Source of the DNA: Chiloscyllium plagiosum
Taxonomy: Eukaryota
NCBI RefSeq assembly: GCF_004010195.1
Contig: NC_057720.1
Coordinates: 90,413,801 to 90,470,883, forward strand
Length of the DNA stretch: 57,083 nt
Direction of reading: 5' to 3'
Shown: positions 9,791 through 41,812 of the stretch, piece after piece
How positions within the stretch are numbered: the first letter of the stretch is position 1
Layout of the letters: each line of letters opens with the position of its first letter
Translations under genes and position numbers: made by a program
Notes under the pieces: generated by a model
Database searches by the model: none
What the model saw: only the letters and a program-made list of their open reading frames with translations
Told to the model about the DNA's origin: nothing

Positions 9791-11051
9791 GGATTGGCCA
9801 AACAGCCTTATGCTGATCCTCTATCTTATGATGTTGTGGTCTCAAAATGACATGGTTAAAATATGCAGTGACCCTTACTTGAAAATAAATCAAAATGCGT
9901 TCATTACTTCATTCCCTGCTCAGGAATGACCTGTTGGCTTTGGACATTGTACGACATCGATTTTTATCCAGTACTGAGCTCTTTAACTTCATTTATGGGA
10001 TCAGATCACAGACCACGTGGGTATCACATTTGATTAACTGGGATAAACGTGATCTCAATGAACTTCTTAACATGCTCTCTGTAATTAGTGGATGAGGCAG
10101 GAGAATAAATTCTGGTAAGAATGCTACAACAGGGATGAATGAACGAGGAACTCGAGACAGGCTGATTTAGTCTGGTTTGGGGCGGTGATGTTTACACAGT
10201 GAGTAGTGGATGTCTATAAAACTAGTGCACATTTCCATCGCATTTGTAGATTCATTTAAGATGCTTTTGCTTGTTTTTTTCTCCCCTGTTCTATGAAGAA
10301 ATTAAAAATGCAGCTTGGTAAATAAAGTGAAAGTACAGACCAGTCATGAACTAAGTAAATGGATGGAAAGACTTAAGGAGATGGGTGTCCTTCCCAATAT
10401 CCAATGCTGAACTCAGTGTCTTGTTTTCAGATCTACTCCAAACTCAGCCCACTAGGAACAATGACATAAATTAGAGAATGACATCACACCAATAACGCAA
10501 ACTATTTTCAATCACTTTAAATATAATGAACAGAATTTCCATGGTTGTTCACCGCTCCTGTAAAACTTTAGAACTCTGCAAAGAGAATAATTATTATTTA
10601 TTATAATTTGTTCAAAATTTGGCATGTGATTTGGCAGTCAGCGTGACCAGCAGCATTTGCACCTAAGGGTTATGAGCATGGAAATGAACTCATTATATTC
10701 AGATTACTCTTGTCACAAGTATCAATAGATGGTCTTATGTGAGAGACAGACTCTGAAAGAAAGATAATTCCATGGGTTACATGATGGTATTTTCGATGAT
10801 TTTACTTTTTTCACAGGTTTCACTTGTTACAAAGCCAGTATTCTTTAGGAATAATTACACAGGGTGTGTCCTAGGTAATCACAATTGCTTTCACAAATCA
10901 AAATACATCAACAATAGTAAGCATCGTTTCAGCAATGGTTGGAGTTGCCATTTTGAAGGTGGTGTCTTCACTCTGTGAAGAAGTAATCTGAAGAGTGGGT
11001 GTTTTTATCATAAAGAGGCAATTTTCATTGACTTTGATTTTTGTTTCATAG

Positions 11052-11360
11052 AAGATACCGAGTGCCACGCTAACACCGTTAAAATCCTCCCACCGCCAGT
11101 AGAACAAGTCTTACTGGAGGCGACGGTAACGTTAACCTGCGTTGTGTCCAATCTTCCTTCTGGAGTCAACGTTACCTGGACACAAGAAAAAAAGCCTCTG
11201 AAATCAGAGATTGCTGACCAGCCTGGACAGAATCCCGACAGCGTGTTCAGTAAATTAGACATTTCGATTGAAGCCTGGCTGAATGGCGTTACTTTTGAAT
11301 GTGTGGTGTACCATCAGAATCTACCGACTCCACTGAGACACTCCATCCACAAGGAGAAAG
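11052..11360 (+). CDS. IGHM: IgM CH3 exon (open)
   Basis: Acceptor ttcatAG at 11050-11051 (NAGNAG). Reads [44 protein letters not shown]...[22 protein letters not shown]. Donor GTGAG at 11361. Confidence 0.93.
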
Positions 11361-11816
11361 GTGAGCGATGAGATTAAAACACAAAGAATCCCATGTGTAA
11401 TCCAGATCCAGTTACATCAATGGCAGGCTTTGATTGGTAATGAACAATCATCATTGGGAGCATTAATGATGCATCTGAAGGCAGGAGAGCTAAGTAGCTG
11501 ATTAAGAAGAAGATGGACCAAAGGATATTGTATTCTGATGAAGTCAGATAAGGTGGGAAGAAGCCTGGGTTGTGACGTCACCATCAGTAATGACAATTGG
11601 ACAGAATGTTCTCGTTGTGGGCTGGAAACATGGAGCCAACTTTCACATTAAACTTTACTTTTTTTACTGAACAGGATGTGTACCATACTGCTCCTTCAGG
11701 AAACGAAAGTGAATAAATCTCAAATTAAAAATGGCGTATTTTAATACTTTGTGAAATTGTGATTATTGACTCTGGATTTTTATAGTTGATTCATATTTGT
11801 CTCAAATATTCCGCAA

Positions 11817-12208
11817 TGATTAATCCGCTGGAGCCATCAGTGTCGGTCCTCATACCACCAACAAAAGAAATCTCCGCTCAGAGGTTTCTCTCCCTCACCT
11901 GTTTAGTGAGAGGTTTCTCCCCCCGAGAGATCTTCGGCATGTGGACAAACAATGACAAGCCGGTGAATCCCAGTAACGACAAGAACACCGAGGTGATGTC
12001 GGAGAGTGACAACATCTCCTTCTTCATGTACAGCCTGTTATCCATTACAGCGGAGGAGTGGGCCAGCGGTGCCTCTTACTCCTGTCTGGTGGGACATGAA
12101 GCGATTCCTTTGAAGATCATCAAAAGAACAGTCGATAAATCCAGCGGTAAACCGAGTTTTGTAAACATTTCACTTGCACTGATGGACACTGTTAATTCAT
12201 GTCAATAA
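11817..12208 (+). CDS. IGHM: IgM CH4 plus secretory tailpiece exon; splice acceptor mutated
   Basis: Reads [14 protein letters not shown]...[16 protein letters not shown]...[43 protein letters not shown]. The tail has an N-glycosylation sequon (NIS) and a penultimate Cys. Internal membrane-form donor G|GTAAA at 12147. The expected acceptor reads ccgcAA. Confidence 0.92.
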
Positions 12209-12250
12209 AAATCTCAAAGTTGCACTTAATAATTCAACAGAAGTAATAAA
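12204..12250 (+). terminator. Poly(A) signals for secretory mu mRNA
   Basis: AATAAA at 12204-12209 (overlapping the stop) and at 12245-12250. Confidence 0.65.
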
Positions 12251-13379
12251 GTTTATTTTCCTCCAGCTGTGAGTTAAATACTGAATTAATTGTTTCCCAC
12301 TCTGATTTAAATTCCATCTGTGTAGTTAAAGTGGATTATTAACAGGTATAGGACGAGTGTCTTGTGCAGTTAATGTTCTCTGCCAGATACACCCTGGGTC
12401 AGAGACAGAGTAAAGGTCACTCATTGCAGGATTCCGCCAAGTACCTTATCCATCCTAAATCCCTCTGTGACAAAATCTGACAATGTCCATTTCATGTCAA
12501 GAGTAGAGCACGAGTTTAGAACTTGGTGTTCTTGATTCCCCCGATTGGACATTCTTACAAAATTTATGTCAGTTTTAAACTATCACATTGCCCAATTGGA
12601 AATGTAAATTTAAGACACTTTAAAATTAAATTTGCTTGGAACATACCAATCGTAAAGAGTGCAGAAAAGTTTGAATGTAACCTTTGTTTCTGGGGAACTG
12701 CCAGGTATCTTGCACCAGCGCATGAGTTGACAGAATGTATCTTCACTGTCACACCAAAGAGAATCGACAGATAAGTTGTTATGGAGCAGAGGGGAGGGGA
12801 AAGATGAATGGTCTGTCCTCTTGCTCCCGATGCAGAGGTTTCATGGTAGATGTCTTCTATAATGTAACCCAGTTGCTAACAGGAACAGTCAGCTTCCTGC
12901 TTTTTTGTCCAAAGATTTAACATGTCCATGCAAAATAATACCTTTGAAGCATGTTGGATACGCTTGGCTCTCTTAACAAATGATTAACTTTGATTCCATA
13001 ATCCAAAACTGGTGTTTGCATCATCCCGGTTTGAATTCCATAGTTTTGTCTCAGTTTTCTGGAGCACATGGGACCAGTTCTGGTATTCGAATACCTGATA
13101 TCATTTTGTTTCACATACAGAACACAAGTAGACATTTTCTAATAAATATATTCAGAAATGTTATCTCTGGAACAGTGGGGATTTGAACTGACGCCTTTTC
13201 TCTCATAGACAGAAATTCTATCACTGCAACAGAACAGTTGCTCATAAAACGCTTATCTCTCCACGACAATGGGAAATGTTTCCTACAACACCAAGGTCAG
13301 GTCTATTATGGGCAATCCATTAGAATTAGAATAAATTAGAATAATAAAAATTGCAGTCTGGTATAAGAACAGATACAGA

Positions 13380-13810
13380 GAGATGATCGCAAATACACAT
13401 GTAATGATACATATACAGGCTGTCACCTAAAGACACATATTTATGTGCACTCTCAAATGTGCATATAGCTAAGATGTTGCACATGCATACTCACACAGAG
13501 CCACACGTGCAAGTGGTCCGTGAACACTCACCTAAGCTCATACAAAAACTCACATACACCGAAAGAAAATCATTTGCACAAATGAACAGGGGTACTCACA
13601 CATAACCATGAGGAACACAGACACACGTTAACACACAAAAAGGAACAGGAATATGTTTATTCATGCACAGACTCCAACATGGGCAAGAGTGAAGTAAGAG
13701 ACTCTTATAACCACATACACAAACATTAAAGGGAAACCAAACACACCAAGCAGTAGATCAAATAAATTAAGGGACACACGTACAAAAACTTATTCCTAAA
13801 TATACAGATC
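13380..13810 (+). repeat. Degenerate CA/purine-rich low-complexity tract between the secretory and TM exons
   Basis: Many acac/acat/cacac units with strong A+C skew. Confidence 0.55.
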
Positions 13811-14289
13811 CTACAAACTAAAATATGAAGCAATGTCCTGACTGTGATGTCACTTATATTCATGATTTGCCAAGCAATTGGTCACCAATACAAAAGATGA
13901 GAATCACATTTGAACTTTTATTCAGTGATGGCCACAATTTTCAACTAAAGTGCTGTCACAGCCTATATTTAAAATATAATGATATAATTAAAATCATCAT
14001 TCGTAATAAGCATTCCTCAAATAATAATATCCTTAAATAATAGATGAAAAGAAAAATAATTTAAAACGTTCTGACATGGACAATGAAGAAAGAACATATG
14101 CAGTCACTATTTGTAATTTCTTGCTGAGAGTCAATAATGCACTAATAGATACAGATAAGAGTCACACTTGAGAAATACCTGACTGCTCTATGAAGATGTA
14201 ATGGTCTCTAATTACATGACTTGGATGCAGATAGATCGACCTGGATCAACAAACAATCTAAATGCGTTCTCTCAGCTTTATATTCATAG

Positions 14290-14410
14290 ATTCAGTAGAT
14301 CGTACTTGGATTGAAGACTTTGAGGATGATAATAGCAACATCTGGACAACTGCTTCATCACCTTGTTCTTCCTGAGTATTTTCTTCAGCACTGCCGTCAC
14401 TCTGGTGAAG
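14290..14410 (+). CDS. IGHM: IgM TM1 exon, frameshifted
   Basis: Acceptor ttcatAG at 14288-14289. DSVDRTWIEDFEDDNSNIWTTA is followed, in a shifted frame, by FITLFFLSIFFSTAVTLVK. Donor GTGAG at 14411. The 121-nt length does not fit a phase 1 to phase 0 exon. Confidence 0.9.
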
Positions 14411-14549
14411 GTGAGAATGATCACATCTTTCACATGCCAAGCAGCCCAATATGTTTTGTGAAATCTCTAAGTGTGCCATTGAATAAAATACAAATCTAAA
14501 AGTCCCTGATTATAAACAAATGCGTCATTGCTTTATCTCTCTTTTCCAG

Positions 14550-14558
14550 GTTAAGTGA
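14550..14558 (+). CDS. IGHM: IgM TM2 exon (VK*)
   Basis: Polypyrimidine tract, cttttccAG, then GTT AAG TGA, completing the conserved KVK cytoplasmic tail. Confidence 0.88.
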   Translation, partial: VK

Positions 14559-14973
14559 ATGAATTGTGGACCCCTTTGATTTTTCTGCTCTGCTGATCGA
14601 GGTCTCTGAATTCCCAATCTACAATCTGTCCTGTTGCTGACTCTAACAGTGAGATCACTTCAGTTTATCAGCATGTAACTGAGACAATTATTGATGGATT
14701 TTCCTTTTTACTTTGATATCGTTGAGATGGTTGTGGTTGGAAGAATTTGTTGCTTCCCAGTTGCTTGAAGACAATTTATTTTGTTTTTATTTGTTCCTTA
14801 TTCAGAATGGTTGTGTACCCTTTCTGATGAGCCTTTGTATTCCCTTTCTTGTGACAGAAAACTCCCAGCTCACAGCGCATGTATTCTCGGCTCAATGTTG
14901 CATTCAGCCATTATATTCTTTTCTGTTAACTTTTACATCAACCTTTTGGATAAAAATGCTTTCTGAAATGGTT

Positions 14974-14979
14974 AATAAA
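14974..14979 (+). terminator. Likely poly(A) signal for membrane mu mRNA
   Basis: AATAAA about 420 nt after the TM2 stop, followed by T-rich sequence. Confidence 0.55.
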
Positions 14980-16124
14980 TCTCGAATGAATATGCACTAA
15001 CCTTGAGTTTGCTTAATTCTTTCTTCAAGCCCAGTCAGTAATAATACATTTTCCTCCATCCAACTCCTTTCCCAGCCAAATATTTTCACTTGTTCTGTTT
15101 GGTTGTGTTTCATCCAGACATTTAGTTTAATGCTGCACTACCATGCAGCCCACTAATGTAAATGCATCTTTCACACAAGATGCCAGATGGAACACTCCAG
15201 AGGCAGGATGATTCGAGAACATTTCCGCTTATGCACAAAGGGTCACATAATGATAATTTTATAGGCTCCACCAGAAACCTATAAAAGGCAGGCAACGGAT
15301 TTTGAAAGTTTACTCTACACTGTCTATACTAAAAGTACTCCCAATGTCGGGACAGCCTGGGTTAGTAATGCAGAAATCGCCACCTAAAGCGCCCAACGAA
15401 ACATTCATCAGCCAAAAATGTCAACGTTCAGTCAGGTATTCAGACACAAGTGCACAATTCAAGGGCGCATTCTCAGAACTGGAGTTTTTCTCACACATAA
15501 ATGTCATGGAGCACAATTCCTGGGATCAATGTGACACACTACACCTGTCAAATTCCAGGAAATGAGACTGAGATATTTGTGATACAGGGATATTACTGAA
15601 CAGCAACCCTCAAAAATAATAAATCGGAGGTCGATGTTGATCAGGCAAGGCAGAGCTCATAAGTAAATATTCAGCCATTGGGATCTATATGATGCAAGAC
15701 GGAATTAAGAACCAATCATAGCAACTGTTAACAGAGTTTGGAAACTATCAGCAGAGGAGAACAGTCCCAATTTCTCAGAGTCGGTGAAGTTCATCATCCT
15801 GGGAATAGTGTTGTGAATCAGTCACATTTTTTCAAAAATGTGGCACCTGAAATTGGATGAAATATTCCAAGTGAGGCAAGCGACTGTTTTATTTCAGTTT
15901 AACATCATTGCTTTGCATTTATTCTCTACAGCGTGCTTGAAGTAGAGTTTATTTGCTCTTCTGTCCACGTGTCATGGTACATTCCTTGATTTGTGCACAT
16001 ATACACGGAGGATCCTCTGCTCCTGCACCCCTTTGGGTTTGCTCCCTTACTGTTTTATGTTCCTCTGAATTCATCACAAACCAAAGAAGCACGTCACACC
16101 TCCCTGAGACTGAGATCTATCTGA

Positions 16125-16705
16125 CACACCATGCATTCACAACTCTCTGCGTAAACAACCTACCTCTAACCTCTCCTCTATACCTTTCTCCTAATATCTT
16201 AAAACTATGACCCCCTCGGCTCAGTCAATCCTGCCCTGGGGAAAATTCTCTAGCTATTGACTTTATCTATCCCTCTCATTATTTTGTATACCTCAATCAG
16301 GTCTCCTCTTTTCCTCCTTCTCTCCAGAGAGAAAAGTCTGAACTTATTCAACCTTTCTTCATAAGGCAAACCTCCAGTCCAGGCAGCATCCTGGTAAACC
16401 TTCTTTGCACCCTCTCCAAAGCCTCTATATATTTCTTTTAGCAGGGCGACCAGAACTGGACACAATATTCCAACTGTGGTCTCACCAGGGGCATGTAAGC
16501 TGTAGCAAAACCTCGCGGCCCTCAAACTTGATTCCCCTGTAAATGAAAGCCTAAACATCATATGCTTTCTTAACAAACCTATCCATTTGGGTGGCAACTT
16601 TGAGGGATCTATGTACTTGCACACCCTGATCCCTCTGTTCCTCCATGCTGCCAAGAATCCTGTCTTTAACCCTATATTCAGCATTCGAGTTTGACCTTCC
16701 AAACT
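16125..16705 (-). mobile_element. CR1 LINE 3' end
   Basis: GLPYEERLNKFRLFSLERRRKRGDLIEVYKIMRGIDKV and EEQRDQGVQVHRSLKVATQ. Confidence 0.9.
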
Positions 16706-19507
16706 GGAAAAGAATGCACCGAATGCCAAACAGGAGAAGGTTGTTGGCATGTATCAGTAGAGTTTGGACCAATGACCAGAAACATGAAACCGGCTTTTAG
16801 GCAAGCTTTCAAAGTGAGCATGAGTACCAGAGGGCAGCTAAGGAAGTTTGTCAGTAAAGTACAGCTAATTAAGGGGACTTGACCATACTCATGGACAAAA
16901 AGATATAAAGCAATCAGAGAACCAAAGAACAGAGTGCGTGTATAAAAGGTACAAGAGGCAGCGTGGATCAAGGACTTGAAGAATTTACAGACAGTCATAA
17001 GTTTAAATTCAATACATTAGATGATAATGAGCCAGTTAAGATCTCAGTCCTTTCTCTATAAGCACCAGTTTAAATTTATCAGTCTTGTCCAGGCCAGCGT
17101 TAAATGAGATTGTTATTTGCACTGTGCACATCTCCTGATTTCACAAGATATCTTAGTTTTGTAAATGCAATAGAATGTATTTTCCACCGTTTCATCAATT
17201 CATTAAATAGAAGTTAACAGAAATGAACAACTTTCCGAAGCTGCCTTTCAACAGCCAGACTGATACAATATTCAAAGAGGATCTGCATGAACAAAGTGGG
17301 CTTGTCAGCGGGTTGCATCATTTCACATTCGAAACCTAGATTCCATTTTAATCATATCAGATGGATGTTGGATTCTCCATTAGCAAAAGGTTCCCATATT
17401 CAAACGGTTGTTTGCCAATACAGAAATTGGGTATTGCTGCAAAATAGGACACGCTTTTTTTTTTGTCTTGCATACATCAGGATAGCTGCAAGGATTTTAA
17501 TATAAATGGAAACAACATTTTACACTGAACAAGAAAAGAGTTCTGATGCTTTGCAAAGTGCACAATGATTGATCAAGATGTCCCCAGTGGAAATGGTCTG
17601 GTCAAATGGTGATGGACAGTTAACAGCTAAAATTTGTTAAATTTTCAAATGGCAGGTTGCCTGAGTGGTCAAGGTATTGCCCTGCCAAATGAATCAGAGA
17701 ATGGCCATCACCAATTTAGTCGAATCACAACAAGCATTGGCAGTTAACTGCCAATCATCACCGGGTCCATTCTCCGTGACTTTACCAATCAGCACTCATT
17801 ACCCAGACAGATTAAATGCCTTCTCCCTTTCCATTGGTATTCTTGAGAGTGTCCTGAGAAGTACAATACTAAAGACTTAAATAAAAAAATCTTTATTTTC
17901 TTCAATACTCAAATTTCCATGTTGTACCAGCTGGCAGAGGTGAAACTTAACTATAATGTATCTGGGCTGCAATAAACTGATAGAGTTCTGTACTGGCCTC
18001 AGAGGAAAACCAGCAACAATGTACTTCTGGAGAGAGAATAATGGGATTACTTTGCCTTTGATCCTATACAGTAAGAGTTTCAAAGTCATTGAGGAACAGA
18101 AATAAATAGAAACAAACCACGTGCACATACACACAGCACACTATTATTTAAAGTAATAGAGACAAATTCTGCATGAGCAGAAAAACTAATTGATATTCTG
18201 AATAGTGAATGTGGCACCAAAAGCACCCTTGTGATAATGACAGCTTGAAAATCTAGACAACATTGATTTGTAGCAATTGAAGAGTTGGTCATTCTATTAT
18301 GAGCCCCGCTCAGTTCCTACACCAGTATGTGACCATAGATTCAGATTGTTTTTAAAGGCAGATAACAATATGAAGTTGCACAGTGGCAGGAGCACGGCTC
18401 TCCTATAGACAGCACTAAAGAGATCTCACACACATTGGCACTTTAATAAAGAAATGGGACAAACCTCAGAGGTAGGGAAATGTAAATAAATGAACCACTA
18501 ACAAGATTTCATCCAATTCGATAGTAACTGCTACCTGATCACCAAATTCAGCTGCCACTTTAAAGGATGCAAGAAACCCCATAAGGAGATACTCCAAATT
18601 TCACTTGATTCTGTGTCACATTATCGCAAGAGAGCTTTGTAGTTGCCTCCTAGCAGACATTATTTGTTTCCACAAACCACATAGGTTTGACAGAGAAGCA
18701 TTGGTTCTGATCAGAGATCAGAACCGAATAGTGCAGAACCACATCATAAAATAGATTGGAACAGACTCAACTGTTTGCTGTTACTTGACACAATGAGAAT
18801 TCTTGAAATATTTCAATACACTCCTTTGGTGAAACATAGAATTTGTTTTAAACTTTTAAAACTGGTTCAATTCATTTTATATTTGCATTGAATGGTATTT
18901 TAGTTTGATCCAGATGTTAGTACAAAGTGAAATATTACAGCACTGAGCTTTGTCTCATTCTCCTTTGGTGGAAGTTAGAAAGGAGTGTTTTCTTACAGCA
19001 GAGAGTGAAGAGAGTGAAGTATAATCTCCTCACGTTAATTCAGAATGATAAGGGTCCCTTTAACGGGCAGAGTGGCTTTGGTTTAATGCCTCGTATACGT
19101 CTGATCTGTAGGATTATCTCAGGACTACACTGCTGTGGCAGTATCAATTAGTCTATTCTAAACCTGAGGGTAGATCTTGAACCCTGAACGTTCCGACTTA
19201 AACATCAGCACACTACTCAGTGACACCCTGACAAGTGGCTTATTATTTACATCCCCAGGGATAAATGAAGCAATTAGGACCAATTGCATCGATTCTTTCT
19301 GAGATGTCAAACAGGCCTCTTATGGTCAAATGATAGTCTCCCTACCCTAGATCAGTAGCTTAAGTTCCTAGGTTAGACTGAGTAAGCTTAACTTCCTGTC
19401 CCACCTACTCCAGAGGTATGTCATACATCGATGGACATTTTAATTTAAAAAAAGGAAAACTTCTTCAATCAATCGGCTGTTGTCATTTGGAACGTGCAAC
19501 ATGTGTA

Positions 19508-20690
19508 ATTAGGAATCAGCACTTTGGGTCACCTTTGCTGATTCCCTGTGTGTTCTACGGGAGTCAGTAATTTCTATCAGTGTCCACCGTTACAGTTACA
19601 AAACGTCCTCTAATATCTCTCTCAATATGTCATTCTTCCCTTTTGAATATGGGCAGTGAGCACTCAGTCCTATCTCTTTTTTTGCAACAAATGGCCAACT
19701 TGCTTCCAGCCTGGTAATCACAAGAGGTTAACTTGCACTGTCAAAGTGTGGCAATACAGAGAACAACCCTCCCCATACATGACCCAGGCGAAGATCACAA
19801 GATGCAGCACAAGCCAGTGTTTATGCCCAGAATTAGATAACCAGGAAGGATGATCTCTACAGCTGGAGAGTCCCGAACCAGGGCTCACGGAATAAGGAGA
19901 CTGTCTCGGGCATTTTGGACTAAAATGAGGAAACTTTTCTTCACCCTGACAGTGGTGACACTTTAGAATTCAGTGTCATAGAAATTGATTAAGTCCAAAA
20001 CATAATAGTTTTTTTTNNNNNNNNNNNNNNNNNNNNNNNNNNNNNNNNNNNNNNNNNNNNNNNNNNNNNNNNNNNNNNNNNNNNNNNNNNNNNNNNNNNN
20101 NNNNNNNNNNNNNNNNNNNNNNNNNNNNNNNNNNNNNNNNNNNNNNNNNNNNNNNNNNNNNNNNNNNNNNNNNNNNATTAGGAATCAGCACTTTGGGTCA
20201 CCTTTGCTGATTCCCTGTGTGTTCTACGGGAGTCAGTAATTTCTATCAGTGTCCACCGTTACAGTTACAAAACGTCCTCTAATATCTCTCTCAATATGTC
20301 ATTCTTCCCTTTTGAATATGGGCAGTGAGCACTCAGTCCTATCTCTTTTTTTTTAGCAACAAATGGCTACCTTGCTTCCAGCTTGCTATCAGCAAGAGGT
20401 TAACTTGCACTGTCAAAGTGTGGCAATACTGAGAACAACCCTCCACATATTGACCCAGGCTAAGATCACAAGTTGCAGCACAAAGTCAGTGTTTATGTCC
20501 AGAATTAGATAACCATGAAAGATGTTCACCACGGCTAGGCAGTCCAGAACCAGGGCTCACGGTCTAAGGATACTGGCTCGGGCATTTTGGACTGAGATGA
20601 GGAAACCTTTCTTCACCCTGACAGTAGTGACTCTTTGGAATTCACTGTCATAGAAATTGATTGAGTCCAAAACGTAATATTTTGTTTTCG
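19508..20690. repeat. Direct duplication of an ~500-bp unit on both sides of an N-gap
   Basis: 19508-20016 matches 20177-~20690. About the first 175 nt are identical and the remainder is clearly diverged. Confidence 0.9.
20017..20176. other. Assembly gap (160 N)
   Basis: Run of n. Confidence 1.
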
Positions 20691-21765
20691 GGCTAAAGGG
20701 GTCAAAGCTTAGAGGAAGAATGATGGAACAGGGTACTGAATTGGATAATCAGCCATCGTCATTTTGAACAGCAGGGCATGCTTAAGGGGCTGAATGGCTT
20801 ACTGCTCCACCTATTTCTGTGACCATTCTGTGGCTTGAAGAGATGTGTTTTGTTTAAAAGCTATTTTGATAGGAAAACAAAAGAGAATGTGTTACTGGTT
20901 ACAACACAGAGTGACGAAACAATTTCAGATGATTGTGAATTGGTCTCCTCAAATTAAATTGAACAATGAGGTAGTTCTGGAAAACTGGGATAAACTACCG
21001 AGTTACCTTCCAGATGAAAATTGAAATGACCTAAAGAGTTAGTATAATCACATGGGGAGATATGTGGGAATAACCTGAGAATTAATAATCTCACTACACA
21101 TAATATTGATTGAGGAAATGCTGTTCCAATCAAACAACATCTTACAGATTTAACCTTTGAAGGTTGGCACAGGTCCAGAAAGAGACTGAACACATGCTGA
21201 AAGACAATATAATCAAAATCAGTCGTAGTGAATAGAGCTCACCTACATAAGTGGTACCAAAGCCAGAAGTATCTAATGATTATGTGTGGACCTACGCAAA
21301 ATCCATGCAGTTACTAAATCTGATACATGTACTAAATCAAGTTTGGAAGACCATATTGAGAAGATGGGACTAGCAATTTATATTTCTCAGTATGACTTAC
21401 TCAAAGGATACTGGCAGCTACTTCTATTCAAAAAGGTGAAGAATGCGCCAGCTACATTTCAAAGACTACCAGTTTACAGTCATGTCATGTGGTATGAAGA
21501 ATGCGCCAGCTACATTTCAAAGACTAACCAATGAAGTCATTTCTTCGTTACCCAATTACGTGGTACACATTGATGACCTGGTTTTTAGTCAAACATGGAA
21601 GGAAGATTTGCAGAAATCCTCAAAATTATTCATTCGACTTTGAGACGCAGGCTTGGTGATAAACCTGGCTGACAGCGAACTCGAGAAGACACAAGTCACT
21701 CTCCTGGACCATGTTATTGAACATGGACAGGTGTCCTCATTGACCAAAAAAGAGCATTACGACTA

Positions 21766-21943
21766 CAAAACAATCTTGATTATCCAAATTAGACGGGTGG
21801 GGATAACTAATTGTTCGGATAACTGATTGTTCAGATAACGCATTGCTCAGATAACTGATCAGATGGCAAACAAAGGACCTTGAGATCTTGTCGGATAATC
21901 TGAAATTTGGATAATTGACGTTCGGATAACAGAGGTTGTTCTG
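21766..21943. mobile_element. Tigger/pogo-like MITE inserted in the Gypsy RT
   Basis: Imperfect TIRs (ta)caaaacaatcttgattatccaaa and ttcggataacagaggttgttctg(ca), with internal ttcggataa repeats. Confidence 0.7.
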
Positions 21944-22268
21944 CATTTGGTAGTACTATGAGTGGGTTTTATCATAAAGTTGTATGGAGTCTTAGCAGTG
22001 TGGCTGCTTCACTCACTGAATTGCTGTAGAAATGCAGGAAGTTTCAATGGGTGGAAAACTGTCAGAAGGCATTTGTCAGCCTGAAAGTTGTGTTAACTAC
22101 TGCCCCAATATTAGCGACAACTAATATCCCAAAGCTATTCAAGGTAGTTATCGATGTAAGTGATAAAAGTGTTGGTGCTGTGCTCTTACAGAAAGCAACG
22201 AGAAGATAAAAAAGACTTATCAATTATTTCTCAGGAAGCTAAACATTCATCAACAGGAATATTTGACA

Positions 22269-22671
22269 GGTCAGGCAACATCCAAGGAGCAGGAGAGTCG
22301 ACGCTTCTCTTGTGATCTTAGCATGGGTCATGTATGGGGAGGATTGTTCTCAGTATTGCCACACTTTGACAGTGCAAGTTAACCTCTTGTTGATAGCACG
22401 CTGGAAGCAAGGTAGCCATTTGCTGCCAAAAAAGAGATAGGACTGAGTGCTCACTGCCCACATTCAAAGGGGAAGAATGACCCATTTACGAGAGATGTTA
22501 GAGGATTTCTTGTAGCTGTAACAGTGTGGGCACTGATAGAAATTACTGACTATTGCTTATGCCCAAAACGTCGATTCGCCTGCCCCTTGGATGCTGCCTG
22601 ACCTGCTGTGCTTTTCCAGCAACACATTTTTCAGCTCTGATCTCCAGCCTCTGCAGTCCTCACTTTCTCCT
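22269..22671. mobile_element. PLE-derived foldback mini-element with 14-bp TSD and captured DNA
   Basis: TSD aggaatatttgaca at 22255-22268 and 22672-22685. Inverted PLE terminal arms enclose 22309-22551. Confidence 0.85.
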
Positions 22672-23671
22672 AGGAATATTTGACAATTGAGAAAGAGACC
22701 TTGAGTTTGGTATTGGCGTTACAACATTTGCCAGTAATGTATCTGAGACAACCATACATATTGATCATAATCCTTTTGAAGTTTTTTGGAGAAATTCAAG
22801 GACAAACATTGTAGACTGGTTTTCGGGGCATTTCTCCCTGAGAAAGTCTCTATATTATTTTACAGGACATTCTGACTCTCCAGCAATTTCTCTCATATTG
22901 TTAAATTCCACATTAAAAATACAATTTAGCCACATGACAAATCAAACTTACTTTCTCGTCACTGCTTTTTTTTCTGTAGAATTGAGACTATCATTTTTTT
23001 GAATGCTCGGTCTGTTAAAGTGCAATTGATCAATAACCACAAAATGAAAAGCAAACTAAAATGGTGTCTGGGTCTATAATTTATTGCCAGACATTAAAAA
23101 ACAGAAGTCTCACAATGCTGCATTTCAAGCCATGATCAGCTAATTTAATGAAACAAGGTCATACTCCAATCAGCATGATCGTGATGAATGGCAGAGCAGG
23201 CTCGAATGATTGCATGGCCTCCTCCTGCCCTATTTTCTACGTTTCTAAACAGGCTTAAATCCCCAAGAAAACTGACGATTCAGAATTATAAGCCTTCATC
23301 AGATGATTTAGGTAAACAGGTTACACATTAGATTTTTTAGTCAGCATATAAAGTTAGTCCATTTGATCTCCCAGTATTGTTGCTTGAGGCTGTGATTACA
23401 GTTCATTTGAAGCTTTCCCACCAGTAAAATGAATCTGGTTGCTGTATTTATCCAGACAATTTGAACAAAAGTATTTTAAATGTTGTGATTCTCATGTCTC
23501 TGATCCCATATCTGTATTTGAACATGATACGATTGTTGTGGATATTACCACTGCAGCTTCGATGTTCCTTTTCTCTGTATCCTCGGGTGTTTCCAATTCA
23601 GTGGTTATCAGTTACCAACACTCACTGAGGATCAGCCTTTCTAATTGAAAGCGAAATAGCTGGATATGCTC

Positions 23672-24240
23672 TATCCACCACAAATTCACCTGCACCTCCA
23701 CACATCATCTATTGCATCGGCTACACCCGATGTGGCCTCCTCTATATTGGGGAGACAGGCCACCGACTTGCGAAACGTTTCAGAGAACACCTCTGGGACA
23801 CCCGGACCAACCAACCCAACCACCCAATGGCTCAACACGAACTCAGCACCGCCTTCCTAACCTGCAATCTTCCTCCTGTCCTCTCCACCCCCACCCCACT
23901 CCGGCCTATCACCCTCACTTTGACCTCCTTCCAACAATCGCATTTCCAACGCCCCTCCTCCAAGTCCCTCCTCCCTACCTTTTATCTTAGCCTGCTGGAC
24001 ACACTTTCCTCGTTCCTGAAGAAGGGATTATGCCCGAAACGTCGATTCTCCTGTTCCTTGGATGCTGCCTGACCTGCTGCGCTTTTCCAGCAATACATTT
24101 TCAGCTATGCTCAATGGGTCACAGGACTCGAAAACATTAACTCTGTTTTCCCACCACAGATGCTGCCAGACCTGCTGAGATTCTCCAGCAGTTTCATTCT
24201 TGTTTCAGATTTCCAGCATTTGCAATTTTGTTTTATTTTA
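23672..24240 (+). mobile_element. PLE 3' fragment (GIY-YIG endonuclease remnant plus terminal repeat), followed by a second PLE-type terminus
   Basis: FTCTSTHHLLHR../CGLLYIGETGTDL remnant and cctgaagaagggattatgcccgaaacgtcgattctcctg. Confidence 0.88.
24012..24047 (+). ncRNA. Minimal type I hammerhead ribozyme motif in PLE terminal repeat
   Basis: CTGAAGA (24016-24022), stem II GGG/CCC, GAAA (24036-24039), then CGTC with self-complementary ACGT in place of stem III. Stem I is only about 2 bp. Confidence 0.6.
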
Positions 24241-24809
24241 GCCTTTCTAAAATTCTGTCAAACTTCATCTCATCCAAGTCGCAACTACATATTTTTTCAC
24301 CATGAACTGGACATCAACTTCCTCCTCATAATACCTCAGCCAGGCCCCTGCCCCTATGAGGTTTAAACAGGGAATTTATGATAATTGGCCCCAGTCATTC
24401 TTTTGCTACCCTTTCACTGTTTGTGACAAATGATGCCTTTTGGATTCCCTTTTAACGTTAGCTGCCAGTCTTCCTTACTCATTATTTCCCCTCTGAACTA
24501 TCTATATTTAGCATGGTTCTCACTGGGGTTAACAATAATACATATTCTTTGCCACCATTTCCTGCTTGTTGAAATATTAAGCTGTACTCAACAGCTGAAG
24601 CTGAACCTTGTCCAGATTTGTGCACAATTGTCCTTGCTCAAATGCCCTCTTGCCCCATTGAACTCAGCCCTCCTCCAACTCAGAATTATTCTGGATTGTT
24701 CCTTGTTCATTTTATACACAATCTTTCGATACAATGACCAATGCTTCCTTAAATGATCCCAATTTAATATTTAATGCATTTTATACATATTGTGTGTATG
24801 CACACAAAT

Positions 24810-25500
24810 TATGAAGTTGGCAGTACAGATTAAAGATATCATTAGGATTCTGAACATTATAAATAGGACCGTCGCATGCAAAATAAGGAAATTATGACAA
24901 ATAGTTAGAAACAGTTCTGCTTTTCCCTCATGCCTAGTATTTATGCAGAAGCTTCAGGAAGGGATTTGAGAAGGTGAACAAAAGGTACACAAAAATGGTA
25001 TCAGAGATGAGCAACTGGACAAATATGTGGATAGTTTGAAGAAGCTCGGCTGCTCTTTATGGAGGACAGAAGATGAAGAAGACATTTTACACGTGTTCAA
25101 AATCATGAGGGATTTGGACAGAGGAGAGTAAAAGGGTAGGGAGAATGCATCTGTATTGGTGACTCTTTGGAGGGTTGGTGTGGACTTGTTGGGCCAAGTG
25201 GCCTGTTTCCATACTGTACGGATTCTATTTAAAAAAGCCTTGAGAAGAAAAGGACACTGATTAAAGAGATCAGCAAAATAAAACAACTGTTACAAGGATT
25301 ATATTTTTTTTAAAAAAAGCATAGTTTGGAAACTGGAGTGTTCTGCCTTATAGTGTTGTGGAGGAAGCAACTTCAACTGAGGTCTTCAAAAGGAATCTAC
25401 AATTTTCATAAGGAGATGTTTTGCAGTATTACATAGTATAAGGATTTGGGAGTGAACATAGGCAAGTTCCTCTTTGAGAGCTGATCAAATCATTGCCTCC
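24810..25500 (+). mobile_element. Decayed CR1 3' region with inserted HE1 SINE tail
   Basis: CR1 remnants (ttcaaaatcatgagggatttggacaga). SINE tail ggtgtggacttgttgggccaagtggcctgtttcc at ~25140-25225. Confidence 0.6.
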
Positions 25501-27454
25501 GAGTGGTTACCATTTATCGTTGTATAACATTGCACAAACTACCAGCTCACCAGTTATTTCCTAATGATTTGTCATGTTCTGAAATATTGACTTAGTCATG
25601 CATGCAACTAAACTTACTTTGCAATTACTTCTTTTGATCCAGGAGAACCTGCATTCTCATTTACCTCACTGTTTGCACTGACAATGTTTTCAGAACTGCA
25701 ATTCATCAAAGAGCACAAATTTAATCATTTAACATCAGTAAACTTATCCAGAATTAAGTCCAAAGCAATTTAACACAAAAAAAAAATCACAGATTTGAGA
25801 TTCAATATTCCAAGCTTGGTCGACTAGTTTTCTTAAGTTTGTCAATGATTGTGCAATTTAATAAATCACATTATTTTGACATGGTGATAATAAAAGAACA
25901 GAGATGTCCATGCAAAGGGAGAATCAGGTGTAACAGACCTTTAGCTGATCGCTGTTCTCTTCGGAAATAGTGATTATAGACAGGAAAGCTCATTTCAGTG
26001 TAAGTCTAATGAGTTGCTGTAGTTCATTCCGTAGTGTGTAAGTGCTAGGTAGTCCAACATCGTAGCTCAGTGATGGTTAAGCGAGTGGAAATTAGGTACG
26101 TTAGTTCTTTTGCCAGTCAATCAAACTGCTCTCTCTTTGATCATATTGAGCTTCTTGACTATTGTTGCAAATAAACCAATCACCAGGTGAGCAGTAAAGA
26201 TTCCAATGCTCCCGATTTTAGCCTTGTAATGGTGAAGTAAACTAGGGGGTAATGACAAACCAGTATACCTTGAATCCCAGTCTTGTAATCTTGCTAATGT
26301 TATTAGTTATTGATGCCTTCACCACCCATCCCCCTGGAGTGTATTGATAATGCTGTCCTATGATCTGGAAAATGTTGCTGGGATTTTGTTTTCAAGATGT
26401 ATCATGAACCATCTTGGTCGTGTTGGTATGGGGTTCTTTTGACTTCCACAATATGTCTACAATACACCACAATGAGGGAATGCTGGGGTTGGGGTGTGGA
26501 AGAGACAGTACAGAGTGAAAAGAAGAGAAAAACATTTCTTTAGTATGTCACCATTGTTTATAGCCATTTCTGGGCTATGCAAAACCTTCATACTGAAAGA
26601 CAAGCAAAATTCAACCGACCATCGAAAAACTTTGGATGTTTTATGCTGATTCAAGATTGGTCTCTCAAAATAAGCCGAGCATTTCTGAACCAGTCAAGCA
26701 GTTTTTTTCTGTGATTGTGCTCATCTGTGTTAGTGTTCACCACACTGCCATGGGATGCCTTCATGAGGCAACCCTGACATAATCTTACAACAACTGCCAG
26801 CACTTCCCTTTCACATTATTGGATCCCTAACATTGCAGATTTAAATCTGACATTAGATCAAACTTACTTGCCAATTTGTTTCCTTTAGTTTCTGACAAAC
26901 TTAGGATTCCGCCTAATTCACAGTGTGAGGTGTCAACATTTTCACAGCTGCAACTGGTCATAAAGTACCAGTTAAATCATTTTAAATATGTGCAAGATCA
27001 CGAAGTTAATATTTGGCGCTTCTTATCAACATCGAGAGTTTTGGCTGTGAGGGCAGGAGCTGGTGGGTGGGTAGTAAAGAGGTCAAATAAAGATTTGTCT
27101 TCACTGGGACAGAAAGAAAACATCCCAAATGCAAGGATTTAAGTTTAATTTCCTTATCTCGGAAAAAAGACTCTCAGGCTCTTTATACAATATTGCTAAT
27201 TTAACCCTTACATGCACAATTTGTAACTCAATGTTTGATTCAGAATCCGAATATACTAATTTCTTATTATTCAAATTCACTGAAGGTTCATGTCATATTA
27301 GTCAGTATTGATTGTTTTGTTGAAAAGAGAATTTTATTTCTTTTCCTTTCCTGCTCCTTCTTCCGTTCAGAGTTTACTGAAAAATCTGACCATAATAAAC
27401 CCAGAAGTAATTACAGGTCTCTGACCCAGAGCAGTGTGATGACTTCAGTATTTA

Positions 27455-27910
27455 GGAGAAAGTGAGGTCTGCAGATGCTGGAGATCAAAGTTGAAACTTT
27501 ATTGCTGGAACAGCTGGAACCCCAAAGGAACCCCAAAGGAAACTTCCATATCCGCCACAGATTCACCTGCACCTCCACCCACATCATCTACTGCATCCGC
27601 TGCAGCATAGTTAGGTCAGGATCACGGTAAAGCAGACTGGGATCACATTTAATTAGGTCAGGATCACAGTGAACCAGACTGGGATCACGGATAGTTAGTC
27701 TCCTCCGACCTATCACCCTCACCTTGACCTCTTTCCACCTATCACATTTCCAACTCCCCTCCTCCAAGTCCTTCCTCCCTACCTTTTATCTTCTCCTGCT
27801 GAACACTCTCTGCTCATTCCTGAAGTAGGGCCTGTGCCCGAAACGTCGAATCTCCTGTTCCCTGGATGCTGCCTGACCTGCTGTGCTGTTCCAGCAATAA
27901 AGTTTCAACT
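27455..27910. mobile_element. PLE-derived foldback mini-element with TSD
   Basis: Direct repeat acttcagtatttagga at 27442-27457 and 27908-27923. Inverted arms agttgaaactttattgctggaacagc. Contains a GIY-YIG remnant and a hammerhead-like motif at 27816-27851. Confidence 0.85.
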
Positions 27911-29199
27911 TCAGTATTTAGGATTGTATTCATTGATGACATCAGTGAAACGGTGTGGATTTGATGCTGCCTGTATTCGATTCACCATGAAAGCACTTTA
28001 TAAGCTTGATTCAAACAAATAACTATGACTTGGGAAAGTGCCTGACTCTGTGGATACACATGGCCTCTGGCCAACTTAAATTATAAAAAAATGCAAAGCA
28101 TTCAATGGCGACACTACGTGAGATAGACCAAGGCGAGGAGACCAGGAGCCGGTCTCAATCTGTAGCCATATTTCTTCAAATATCATCAAACTTGCGGAGA
28201 CCATGGAAATAATTTTAGAGATAGTGTGGAATGAGGGGTGGGGGAGTGAGGATGAGCAGGAAAGTGAAACAAAGAAAAGCGATGAGGTGGGGTGAATGAG
28301 AGGAACCTAATCCTTCAGTATTTTCAGTAAGACTCCATTGTCCAAAAATAGAATCTCAATATTGATCAGCAAGCAATTTCCCATCCAGCGTTTAGGATGG
28401 TGGTACTACTGTTTAAGTCAACCCTGTCTCAAATATTAAATTCCTCGGGAGGCAGTCCATCAGCCTCGTTAATGTAGCTGTTATTGTCTGGACTGGCATT
28501 TGTCGCATTGCACAAAACATTTTAAAGGAATCGATGGTTCTCCAACATTCCCTTTTCACATTGTTGTATTCCAAATGAAGCATAATTAAACCACATCAAA
28601 ATCAGATCAAATCGAACTTGGTTCCTCATGGTTGCCCTCACGTCTGGCAAACCTTAATTCCCATCCTCCTGACAATCTGATCTGCCAAATGGTCCCAGCC
28701 ACAAGTCATCATGAAGCACAAGTTAAACAAAGGACTTACATCTATGAATGTCTTGCAAACATTTGAAAATAAACCCTGAAGATCGAAAGGCTCTATTGAA
28801 CTGATACAGCATTTTTTAAAAAAAAAAGTGGAATCACTATAATCACCAGGAGTAATGCAAATATTGGGAGGGGCTGTGGTCTGGAATGGTGGTGTTTGCT
28901 GTAGCACTGAGAGACGTTGTCAAGAGGAAGTTTCTCCAGAAATCTTACAAAAATTCCTACTCTCCAGAAATTCCTTTTCACATTACATTCTGTTAAAAAG
29001 GCCACTTTCAAAAGCTATGACTGCAATATATGTTGCCTTTTTTTTCAACTTTCACAGAGTTTTGCAGGACACCATGGCCTGTTCATTTTGAAGAGATGAG
29101 GGTGAGGGGAGGTGGCCGATCTAATAGTATTGGGAAGAAGAGAGTTAAATAGTCAATGTGTTTTCAATATGTTCAGCCTCATTGCACAGTCTAGTGCTT

Positions 29200-30465
29200 G
29201 GAAGTGAACAACTGAAGGCCTGAACATTGAAGGGCAAGAAAGGACAAAAAGAATCCCGCTCTAAAAAGAAATGCGGAAGGACAGAGAAAACCCTTCCCCC
29301 CATAAGAATCAACTAAGCCTCCCGGCCTGTAAAAAATAAGAACAATCACATAGTGGATAACAAATAAGCCTCCCTCGCTACCCCCTGGAGGTGATATTAA
29401 ACAATAAAGGGGATGAAAAGGGAAAGAAAAGGTAAACCGGGGTGGGGGGAATGTAAAATAGCATCATTAGCCATACAGTTTAATTCTTGCAGTCTATTTA
29501 AGAGAGTCCAAAAATTCTTTACCCTCCTCCGGTGATCCAAAGTTATAAACGGATCCTTCACGGCTGTAGCACAGCGTTGCTATGTACCACAAGGAATATT
29601 GGATGTTTGAGCTTCTCAGATGCTTTTTCACCTCATCAAATGCCCTCCTTTTGCAGACCACAGCTGGAGAAAAATCCTGAAATAGCATAATCCTAGAGCT
29701 CTTGTACACCATGGCCTGGGGATCCATCCCCACGATTCTAGTGGCTTCCAGGAGCTTCTGCTTCTCTCTGTAGCATTGGAGCCGGAACAGGACCGGGTGG
29801 ACCTACTCTATCCATGCCAGGCCTGGTCCAGACTCCAGCTTTAATATTTCAGGGATCCATTGTTCCAAAGAAAAACTGCCCCAGCTGGCCTTCCTCTTCT
29901 CGTTCAGGAAGGCCCAGCAACCGGATATATTTCAATTACCCCAATGTCGAACTCGTCGATGTGCTCCTCCAAGGTCCAAACTCACTGTTCGAGAGCCCGG
30001 ACCCGGCCCACGACCGATTCAGCCTCAGCCTCCGAGGTCGCGGTCTTTTGCTCCGCCCCTCCAACACGATTTTCGAGGTTTTCAATTTCTCGGTCGTGCT
30101 GAGAACGACTCCCACCTGCTCCTGGATTCTTCGATGAAGGTGTCGATCCTCTCTTGCAGCTTGTTAATCACGTAGACCAGGCTCGCCTCTGCAGTAAGTC
30201 CCCCGAGGCGGCCGTGGACATCTCTGCTGCTGCTGGAGAGGGCGGGGTCCCCGCCTGTTGCGAGCTGCGGGCATTTTTTCCTTTAGTCATTTTAAGCACA
30301 GCACCAAACTGTTCAAGCTTGGTGCAAAATGACTAAATATGCTGGGGAAAAAAATATTTTAAATGGTTTAGAGTACGTGGTGGAGTTGCGTACCCAAGTT
30401 TGCCTGAGTCTTGGACAGAGTACTACAGACTCACACTTGCTGGATCGCCACCATTTTGAATCTCA
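29200..30465 (-). mobile_element. L1-clade LINE 5' UTR plus disrupted ORF1; ORF2 absent
   Basis: ATG at 30290 (MTKGKNARSSQQAG). C-terminal L1 ORF1p motif RIMLFQDFSPAVVCKRRAFDEVKKHLR...YNFGSPEEGKEFLDSLK* ends at 29494. Relatively GC/CpG-rich. Confidence 0.8.
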
Positions 30466-30500
30466 ATTCATGACTTTGAATGAACAACGTTATTGTACAT

Positions 30501-33500
30501 TGTTATGGACCAGGCCCGACCCCTCAAAACATTTTTAAGCATGTAGCCCAGACCGTAATGTTGCTATTTGTTGAAGTTAAGTATATAGTAGATATTCCCA
30601 GAGTGAATTATCTTGTCTGACTGAGCTAAAAATGTGTTGCTGGTAAAGCACAGCAGGTCAGTCAGCATCCAAGGAACAGGAGAATCGACGTTTCGGGCAT
30701 AAGCCCTTCAAGGGCTTATGCCCGAAACGTCGATTCTCCTGTTCCTTGGATGCTGACTGACCTGCTGTGCTTTACCAGCAACACATTTTCAGCTCTGATC
30801 TCCAGCATCTGCAGACCTCACTTTCTCCTATCTTGTCCGACTGCCAACTTTTAAACAAACAGAATTTATTTACAAAAGTAAGGAATGAAACACAACGAAC
30901 CGAAAATCCAGTAGCTGAATAATTCATCCTATCCGGACCTGACAGGCTATCACAACTTAATGATGTTTTTCCAAATTTTTTGCAACAATCTCAATAAACA
31001 AAATCCTGAGCAGAAAGAGTAAAACTTACACACAATAAACTTACAAGTTAGGAAATCAGAGGGCTGAAGGAGGGGGATGGCGTCCAGTTTCAACAATGAC
31101 CCTGACTCAACTAACCCACGAACTGAACTGATCTGTGCAGCTGCAGAGCTCGCTACGTCCCCTTGATTACACCAATTTTTTAAAAAAGACTTGAAAGCCT
31201 TCATTCCGATGCATTATCTGTTAGGTAAAAACCAAAGGACCCCAATGAAGCATTCAAAATTGGGACATGTTGGAACCTTGGGTCGTTTAGAAAATCACTG
31301 AAAACAATTCAAGGACAACATAACCTTTTAAGGGACCAGCTTTGTGACAACCCCCTTGATATAAAACTGAATCATCAATATCCGAAGATGGCTTCAGTTT
31401 TCTAACCCCCTCCCCCCAAATAAATAGTGGTTAGTACACTAAAATACGTATGTACATTCATTTACTATAAACATGCAAATATGCACAACAACATGTGGAC
31501 TCAGTGTGTGGTACTTACATTACTGAGTGTCTTCATCTGTCATTCAAGTCTGGAAAATGCATTGGCAATCATGTTTTCAAGACCTGCCACGTGCACAATT
31601 TTCAAATTGAATGGCTGCAACTACAGGCTCCAGCTAAACAGTCTCGCATTTTTGTCCATAAGTTTCTCCAAAAACTTCAATGGTTTATGGTCAGTGTACA
31701 TGGTCGCCTCAGATGTGTTGTTGGTAATATAAACACTGAAATGTTGTAGTGCCTACACAAAGCTCTCAGTGTCTTTCTCAACTGTTGAATAATGAACGTT
31801 CAACTTCTCGGAGAAATATCCAATAGGTCTTTCTGTCTTCTTGCCCTCTTGCTGCAGTAGTCCAGCACCGATACGCAGACCACTCACATTTAAAGCCACC
31901 TTGAATGGTTTTGCATAATCAGGTGTGTTTGATAGTGGAGCAATGATTAACACATATTTCATGCTGTCAAATGCCTTCTGACCGTCCTATGTCCACTGAA
32001 TTTTCTTGCCTTTCTTTAACAAGTGGAGCAGTCATCTTGCGAAAATGAGGCACAACCCATCGATAAAATCCACACAATTCCAGGGAGCTCATTTTGTCAA
32101 CGGTATGAGAAATTCCCCAATTACCTTCACTTTTAAATCCCACGTCACTGTTTATTTATGTCTAATATCATGGCCCAGGAAGGTTGACTATTGCTTTGGC
32201 AAATTCACTTTTTGCTCGGTACTTTCTACTCCTGTGCCAACTTTAGAGGATTATGCCTGTAATGATGTTGCTTAATCATAACAGCAACTCCTGTAGCTAC
32301 GTTATGCACAGTTGGGTTAGTACGTCCAAGTTAATTACTGCATATCTCCCCATGTGATGACAATAACTGTTTCTGGTCATTTCAATTTTTATCAGGAAGG
32401 TAATTCAATAATGTATCTCAATTTTTGACAACTATCTAATTGCCCACTTTAATTTGAGGAATGTTCGATTCAGAAGCCTCTGAAATTGGTTCTTCCTTCT
32501 GTGACACAATCATTAAAAGCTTCACCTCTTGCTTTCTTCCCTATCAAAATACCTTTTGAGCATATTCACATGACAAACGCTGTGAGATTTTTTTTTCTGT
32601 CTGGAGTTCTTATCAAGTAATTACCCTCACTCAATATAATTTGTATTTCATAAGGTCCACTAAACCTTATTCACCTATCCCTGGAAGCAACAGTAACGCC
32701 TTATCCCTGATAGCAAAATTGCATTTGTTTGATTTCCTGCCCGCTTTCTGTTTTATTACATGCTGCGGTACATTTAAATGCTGCCTAACCAATTCCCCAG
32801 TGCTATTAATCATTCCTTAAAGTTCGACCTTTAAATGCTGAGTTATTATTTTCTCCTTAATCGACTTTAATGGTCCTCCGACTTAATGCCCCAAAACTAA
32901 TACAAATGGATTGAATTTGCTCTGTTAATTTGGTGCATCCCTGATCATGAAAAGCACAAATGTAATTCCCATGCACTAATCATCTGGATAATCCTGAGCA
33001 TAAGCCCTCAACATGGTCTTTAATATTTAATGCTACCTTTTCTGCGCTCTCTGCAATTTTGCATGGTACGCAGTAGCTTTGAATTGCTTCATTCCAAAGA
33101 CATGATGGTGAATAATTTGGATGTGAGGTTTGAACCTTGATCTCACTACATCTCTACTGGTAGTCCTTATCTACTTCTTAACAATAAAATTCCTCTGCAA
33201 TTCTTTTAGCTGTGATATTGCATCTTGGGATAGCCTCTGGACATCTCATTGGTACATCCAGTATTGTTATCAAATGCTGTTGCCCATTTTTTGGTTTGAG
33301 GTTGGGGAGTTGGCCAATCTATTAAGCATTTGTAAAAGGCTCCTCAAATGCAGGAATTGTTAAGAAATGCGCAGGTTTTATTATCGCTTGTGTTTTTTCA
33401 ATTGACTGACATGTAAGACATGTCCGCCAAAATTCAACTACGTTCTGTTGCAGTCCAGGTCAATAAAAATGTCTCTGTATTTAAGCCTGTCTTTTCCTCA

Positions 33501-40801: not shown

Positions 40802-41812
40802 TCTTCTTGTGTAATAAGCAACAGAGAGTGAATGGGCTGTTTCGATGGGCTGAATGGCTTTCTCACATTCCAGTGAAATCAGCTGAATGACCTCCTCTTT
40901 CTGTACTGTGGAAATGTGCAGTGTCCAGCAATGCGATCACACGAATGTTACCTGCACATTAACAGCATGAGCTTGAATATTGTCCAGGTTTTGATGCTTT
41001 ATGTGATCTTCACTGAACATCTTCACTTCTGGACGAATGACGGAAGGTAAGACATTCATGAATCAGCTGAAAATGTTCATGCGGAGGAAGCGACCCTCTT
41101 GATCGCCTACAGAGATATCCAGGGACTGAGAGGATTGATGTCCAACAGCCACATTGTGTTCTGAATGACCCAACCAGTGGAGAGATTACTATAGATTCCC
41201 ATTAAGTACGAATCTTGTTCAAACCCTTTGACACATTGCTCAGTCAAATCTTTCAGTAATGTCAGGGCCAGTCACTCTGACGCTGTGTTCATATCTTTTG
41301 TTCATATCAATAGGCCAAGGTAGATGTGTGGGGAGTGCTTCCTTCTCTGATAGGATAGTGACTGTTGGGGCCTCTCTATCCCAGACAGATGCATCACTGA
41401 AATGTTTGGGAGGGGGTGAGGAGCGTGTCAATGGACTTTGGGAGAGTCGAGTGCTGCAAAGAATTTGCATGAAAGAGAAATTTCCACAGCCAGCAGATCA
41501 TCCCTGACCTTACTGAAGGGAAGGGCAGGCTTGAGGAGCTAAATATCCTCGTGTTATTCCAGTATATCCCAGAGTCCAGTCAGTTTGTGGTCTGTTCCAT
41601 TTCCTGTGTTACTGACCTGAAGTAGCTGAATAAACTGATCCTGTTGCTGCATAACAGGGTACTGATGCGACATGATCTACTCTGGGTCCAGTGTTCTAAG
41701 TTCGAGGGGCTGATTGGCCTCCTCCTGCAACTGTATGTCAGGCTCCAGGGGCTGAAAATCCTTATTTCGTCCTGGTGTAACTGAAATCCATATAGACTAA
41801 ATCTACTACCCG

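Follow-up and report, generated by a model that had tools for sequence, protein, structure and literature searches.

The insertion at positions 22255 to 22685 of the window (the whole stretch of DNA analyzed here, 57,083 nt) is a dead two-armed Penelope insertion whose inverted 244-bp center matches DNA 1.8 kb upstream; this center was probably made as a microhomology-primed repair patch at the joining of two cDNAs, themselves likely primed off both cut strands. It is one case of a recurrent class, and its interest lies in the family-wide statistics rather than in the dead locus itself. A strict pattern finds at least 4,900 young foldback joints in the genome, and this large natural collection lends support to two-strand priming with subsequent end-joining. 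The features of the window are listed in Table 1.

Table 1. Coordinates of the insertion, its presumed sources, and its surroundings in the window.
Feature	Position	Strand	Remarks
3' exons of IgM-type heavy-chain gene, upstream of the insertion	10979..14412	+	A pair of C1-set exons plus secretory tail and membrane exon
Apparent second source, copy A	19562..19802	+	Probably assembly overlap ahead of N gap
Source segment, copy B	20231..20472	+	Part of multicopy Ig-cluster unit; closest sampled copy to the cargo
Broken Gypsy-type pol fragment (insertion target)	20885..22830	+	Stops and frameshifts; approximate ends; Pfam matches and translations
Left TSD copy, 14 bp	22255..22268	.	Exact repeat; single copy in four empty-site paralogs and in public runs
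Short untailed Penelope terminal arm	22269..22307	-	Antisense; lacks 15 bp that the duplicated locus keeps
Captured inverted copy of upstream segment	22308..22551	-	244 bp
Three bases matching neither source nor adjoining arm	22552..22554	.	Present in both insertion copies
Long tailed Penelope terminal arm, 117 nt	22555..22671	+	Begins right after hammerhead-like core
Right TSD copy, 14 bp	22672..22685	.	Exact repeat of left copy
Cargo-free foldback of the same family	30610..30843	.	14-bp duplication with one mismatch; one-base center

The 14-mer that opens the insertion is repeated exactly at its other end, without a third occurrence in the window, and the two copies enclose 417 bp. The sequence-only reading had taken this repeat for a TSD interrupting a Gypsy RNase H, and the exact repeat, the empty sites, and the Pfam matches in the target (RVT_1 at 21440-21640 and RT_RNaseH_2 at 22030-22206) all bear it out. 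Four paralogous contigs (L286, L287, L288, and L289/L305) carry the 14-mer once and no insert, and public runs show the identical 417-base skip (22269>22687) in contigs of X15 and X3 and in five raw reads of X22. The joint between the center and the right arm is spanned by a contig from another organism's run, X19 (22409-22598, with 17 differing letters and 3 gaps), and a duplicate of the locus, lying 216 kb off in inverted orientation, contains the same insertion with the same TSD. Read shares for the insertion (0.16 to 0.32) were never taken alone as support. The copy in the duplicated locus, the empty sites, the bridged joint, and the armless state of the other genome matches to the center together indicate that the insertion is real, old, the product of a single event, and has not moved since. 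It contains no ORF, and nothing about this dead scar points to a function.

Both arms match the Penelope terminal repeats at 24028-24112 and 55037-55116, which belong to GIY-YIG-bearing copies, confirming the earlier identification of two inverted Penelope-like arms; the right arm is 92% identical to the arm at 30714-30830. The Penelope-like copies in the window lie at 23672-24107 and 55037-57000. An ORF at 23629-24069 gave a GIY-YIG match under the Pfam cutoff (E value of 0.0033), and the RT C terminus and GIY-YIG motifs at 55037-56300 were judged by eye. The copy at 23672-24107 is 5' truncated, retains remains of GIY-YIG, and is found in the window's unit only, being missing from the paralogs examined. 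Insertion units of EN+ Penelope-like elements (Penelope/Poseidon type) have been described as an inverted 5'-truncated copy with a one-sided tail of 30 to 40 bp and a short TSD (PMC8557442, PMC3846280, PMC11167929), and the insertion has the shared terminal repeat, the inverted copy with a one-sided tail, and a TSD, of 14 bp. By domain order and analogy, this EN+ Penelope-like element could be called Poseidon-type. In contrast to those units, both copies here retain no more than the terminal repeat, and the piece captured between them was traced to DNA adjoining the site. An Rfam scan of 18000-32000 gave no hammerhead at E values up to 5; on inspection, the letters of a hammerhead core can be made out in intact copies (24013-24050), where they agree with the minimal type described in PMC4209133. 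The CUGANGA core is retained in neither arm of the insertion; the statement of the sequence-only reading that the cargo replaces this half of the arm gives way to a trimming of the arm ends. Both arms are trimmed beyond the family norm, the left-arm loss of 15 bp being specific to the window copy. The left joint has a 1-nt overlap and the right joint three extra bases, which are either untemplated or a leftover of the usual arm end.

The center is the reverse complement of copy B (89.0% identity; E value of 4e-87) and also of copy A (88.5%), so its recognition as inverted upstream DNA was right, whereas of the two upstream sources then proposed probably only copy B stands. An N gap (20017-20176) sits between the two copies, and their first part is identical at 182 of 183 positions. 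At the 12 diagnostic sites past 19727, copy A agrees with the young paralogs throughout, and copy B keeps the old state at 11; a single source copy is present in the duplicated locus and in the other paralogs examined. Most simply, copy A would be the end of a chimeric contig that has run into another paralog, the less likely alternative being a true duplication plus conversion, and the idea that the cargo was ancestral to both upstream copies is lost with it. The nearest real source lies 1,783 bp from the element. Among the sampled source copies, copy B shares 91.2% with the cargo and the next ones 90.0 to 90.7%, while the two cargos, in the window and in the duplicated locus, share 93.4% (6.6% apart).

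The source belongs to an Ig-cluster unit (window 11602-29244; L002-L039, L286-L313) with at least 40 copies, many of them on unplaced contigs, and the copies are mosaics of one another. Most of the Gypsy fragment is gone from a young group (about 97% identical to its majority), whereas an older group retains it. At six sites the cargo agrees with the old lineage of sources, namely window, duplicate, L037, and L305 (not all copies at all sites), as against the young group. A tree of 40 cargo and source rows splits off the young paralog group (94/90, left open) with the cargo outside it; the tree does not identify the donor and leaves the old lineage unresolved. All four old-lineage sources, one of them from an empty-site contig, have in common a two-base change that the cargo is without, and no source copy has most of the cargo-specific changes. 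ADAR editing was considered as the origin of these changes and rejected, with just 3 of 8 being A>G. The two filled loci are sisters beside the insertion (3.9 to 5.5% apart) but not at the source (9.3%), which makes the region a mosaic. Sequence comparison does not tie this particular cargo to the cis copy, and its local origin is suggested by membership in the same unit together with the behavior of the family.

To characterize the family, foldbacks were collected by strict exact-match patterns with a gap of up to 280 nt between the two arm motifs, two-tailed foldbacks counting twice; because the patterns are exact, the counts refer to young copies only. There were 4,266 foldbacks with a gap of 0 to 39 nt, 383 with 40 to 99 nt, 118 with 100 to 170 nt, and 169 with 171 to 280 nt. 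We analyzed 144 distinct loci, an enriched set that was partly handpicked for foreign-looking centers and is not a random sample. A TSD of 10 to 20 bp (mode of 14 to 15 bp) was present at 117 of them, and 140 have one arm of about 115 nt, the other arm being about 80 nt. They yielded 61 non-Penelope center segments of at least 25 nt, and 36 of these aligned at ≥95%, across half or more of their length, to the flanks of their own locus, compared to 1 of 8,723 cross-locus pairs. This proximity is far beyond chance, and it upholds at the level of the family the local sequence capture that had been suggested from a single locus. At ≥90% identity and with widened flanks, 42 of the 61 centers matched, or 41 without L204, which was left out of the joint statistics because its match extends into a neighboring Penelope copy.

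For these 42 patches, the source lies 40 to 2,289 bp away (median of about 501 bp). Only three sources are at 1.6 kb or farther, placing the 1.8 kb of this locus in the tail of the range. The four combinations of source side and orientation are represented by 12, 12, 10, and 8 patches; these counts were set aside as evidence on whether the template was RNA or DNA, since both templates predict symmetry, and they do not discriminate between copying by the Penelope RT and by a host polymerase either. Median patch length is 123 nt and median identity 97.7%, with 7 patches at 100% to their source. The other 35 differ from it, and patch-to-source divergence tracks arm-to-arm divergence (rho of 0.35, P = 0.023), which argues against assembly gap-filling. 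Mean divergence is lower from patch to source (1.9%) than from arm to arm (3.2%). For 19 or 20 of the 61 centers there was no qualifying local source, some having a partial one and some being common repeats, and five (L067, L180, L187, L197, and L203) had no source within 15 kb on each side. In the unselected first loci of each gap class, searched with flanks of mostly 1.5 kb, a local patch was found in 0 of 29 (0 to 39 nt), 1 of 29 (40 to 99 nt), 8 of 29 (100 to 170 nt), and 2 of 30 (171 to 280 nt). Roughly 1 to 2% of young foldbacks carry a local patch. In L119, L174, L191, and L194, the center is a composite of at least two pieces, one or more of them copied from nearby DNA, and represents several rounds of template switching.

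The joints look like products of end-joining. Among 82 patch joints, 53 are direct, and an overlap of at least 3 nt is seen in 23 of these 53, against 6.7% in simulation (P = 8e-14). In 48 of 82 cases, the arm of a patched foldback ends 14 to 16 nt past the motif, at a point directly preceding the hammerhead-like core. Where a short center has an insert of at least 8 nt, 18 of 26 copy at least 8 nt of their own arms (1.25 expected), and arm-copying scars of this kind have been described for polymerase-theta joining (PMC7165422). Short microhomology and direct or inverted local templates, which are typical of that pathway, are thus found at the family level. Primary polymerase-theta tracts are rarely over 10 bp (PMC7165422), in contrast to the 244 nt found here and to the survey median, and a more processive host polymerase or the Penelope RT itself would be needed for such long patches.

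We propose that the target would first receive a staggered cut of about 14 nt, the duplication being observed and the enzyme presumed. Both 3' ends would then prime reverse transcription, one at the tailed and one at the untailed start. Arms of about 115 and 80 nt are seen in the family, and the two-strand priming and two starts are suggested by work in vitro on an anole Penelope element, whose protein cuts and extends both strands and has two internal start sites that delimit the tail (PMC11167929). That result would predict converging tailed and untailed cDNAs inside one TSD. Both cDNAs would end near the 5' end of the RNA, just upstream of the hammerhead-like core, where 48 of 82 arm ends are seen to fall within a 3-nt window, and their ends, without long homology, would be sealed by end-joining through short overlaps or short copies of their own arms. 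In a variant of this step, used in some 1 to 2% of cases, 30 to 250 nt would be copied from DNA within about 2 kb; the products are observed, whereas the pathway is deduced from them. A host DNA polymerase acting on a DNA template is slightly ahead of the Penelope RT as the enzyme responsible. An Ig pre-mRNA is an unlikely template, as the site lies about 8 kb past the membrane exon (14300-14412) of the IgM-type gene. The locus was later duplicated along with the Ig-cluster unit; the patch never moved by itself.

The copying may instead have been done by the Penelope RT jumping off the end of the RNA onto nearby DNA or local nascent RNA before joining, which was the first idea of the sequence-only reading and a possibility that we regard as unlikely without dismissing it. 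Long unbroken tracts (median as above) would suit such an enzyme, many tracts begin where the arm is untrimmed, and L1 insertions containing genomic DNA templated from nearby have been reported, the share of RT and host in them being left open by the authors (PMC11702581). The centers nevertheless carry typical end-joining scars, with several short arm-copying rounds, no germ line transcript is known for the source at this locus, and "template switch" is not mentioned in the available text of PMC11167929. In its widest form, which we likewise hold to be rather doubtful, duplication of host DNA would be an intrinsic side effect of Penelope insertion, the telomerase-like RT, with both cut strands primed, jumping to DNA up to about 2 kb off and copying 30 to 250 nt of it, and the thousands of hairpin centers would be a germ line record of the unsolved last step of transposition. 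The timing could also differ. Long palindromes get revised at their center, and a plain hairpin might have been inserted first, its unstable center breaking later and being repaired by local templated insertion. The lower divergence of patches from their sources than of arms from each other and the trimmed arms at 22255-22685 speak for this and against copying at the time of insertion, but the common end point of 48 of the 82 patched arms marks full-length cDNA ends and more than 4,000 short-center hairpins remain unrevised, making later repair improbable.

Transport of the host segment by a nonautonomous Penelope vehicle, or the nesting of a separate element in the center, has very little left in its favor. 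The cargo segment does have at least 40 matches in the genome (40 among 53 candidates, a lower bound), and Penelope ends mobilize host DNA in trans in a rotifer (PMC3846280). Two unrelated loci, L071 and L118, have near-identical 169-nt all-Penelope centers with no duplication found, among several listed matches of the same length, and this may be a hairpin center that has spread. However, only 2 of the 40 cargo matches are flanked by arms, and the second has the same site and flanks as the first; the other examined matches are the source position inside the long Ig-cluster unit and are armless. The cargo has no duplication, terminal repeats, or tail of its own, and no two of the 61 surveyed cargos are alike beyond a common repeat. 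The vehicle suggested by the sequence-only reading was accordingly abandoned, while its capture proposal survived the check for a dispersed transposable element with its own TSD inside the foldback, of which there was none. It is hardly conceivable that the pattern arose from hairpins gap-filled with neighboring reads. The assembly is gappy, and 7 of 42 patches are identical to their source. At one of these identical patches, L087, the joints were not seen in reads: across four contig runs, pieces covering the cargo represented the source copy or were uninformative, and one arm-flank joint had 30 arm-side letters where 31 were needed. For the locus at 22255-22685 an artifact is refuted, since the cargo is 11% off its source, is found at two loci that are 6.6% apart, and has its right joint bridged in another organism's run.

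The literature searched (mostly open-access main texts) contained no description of Penelope foldbacks capturing local sequence at their centers. PMC3846280 mentions unrelated sequence captured between solo repeats, and the available text of the EN+ Penelope-like unit accounts (PMC8557442, PMC3846280, and PMC11167929) gives no local origin, frequency, or joint statistics. According to PMC11167929, the steps that complete a Penelope insertion once reverse transcription is over have yet to be validated. The joining of two cDNAs preferred here resembles L1 twin priming, in which RT extends two DNA ends that are then ligated, although in L1 the two parts are nonoverlapping stretches of one RNA and microhomology is needed to prime (PMC11702581). 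Three L1 insertions that have microhomology or DNA templated close to the site are reported there as rare events; in the Penelope family, by contrast, both arms represent the same stretch from fixed starts, in the germ line and at thousands of joints. The likeness to polymerase-theta insertions lies in microhomologies of 2 to 3 nt, direct or inverted copies of the flanks, and repeated short rounds (PMC7165422), and the difference lies in single tracts of 45 to 250 nt taken from hundreds of bases off, a scale that would be closer to copying of the strand-invasion type. Microhomology-mediated template switching (MMBIR; PMC8421209) was also compared. The survey yields testable numbers for tract length, reach, and microhomology. 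Foldback patches are also a minor means by which local sequence is duplicated, and an old patch such as 22308-22551 preserves past sequence of the multicopy Ig-cluster unit.

The exons upstream of the insertion were recognized by Pfam C1-set matches, and their best PDB matches were Ig mu constant regions (E value of 1e-45). A V-like exon lies 5.4 kb ahead of the window, and further C exons are present. The membrane exon lacks seven bases that are kept in the duplicated locus; owing to the resulting frame shift, the Ig cluster of the window may be a pseudogene or secreted only. Between the positions that correspond to window 22804-22806, the duplicated locus (L032) carries some 630 bp of additional sequence that includes an N gap, is found only in the duplicate, and may be LINE-like. 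Elsewhere in the window, 40427-42010 and 47371-48950 are identical, 6,944 bp apart, and lie beside an N gap (46871-47370), probably as another assembly overlap. An inverted repeat at 39599-40515 has arms of 355 nt that are 73% complementary, with 207 nt between them.
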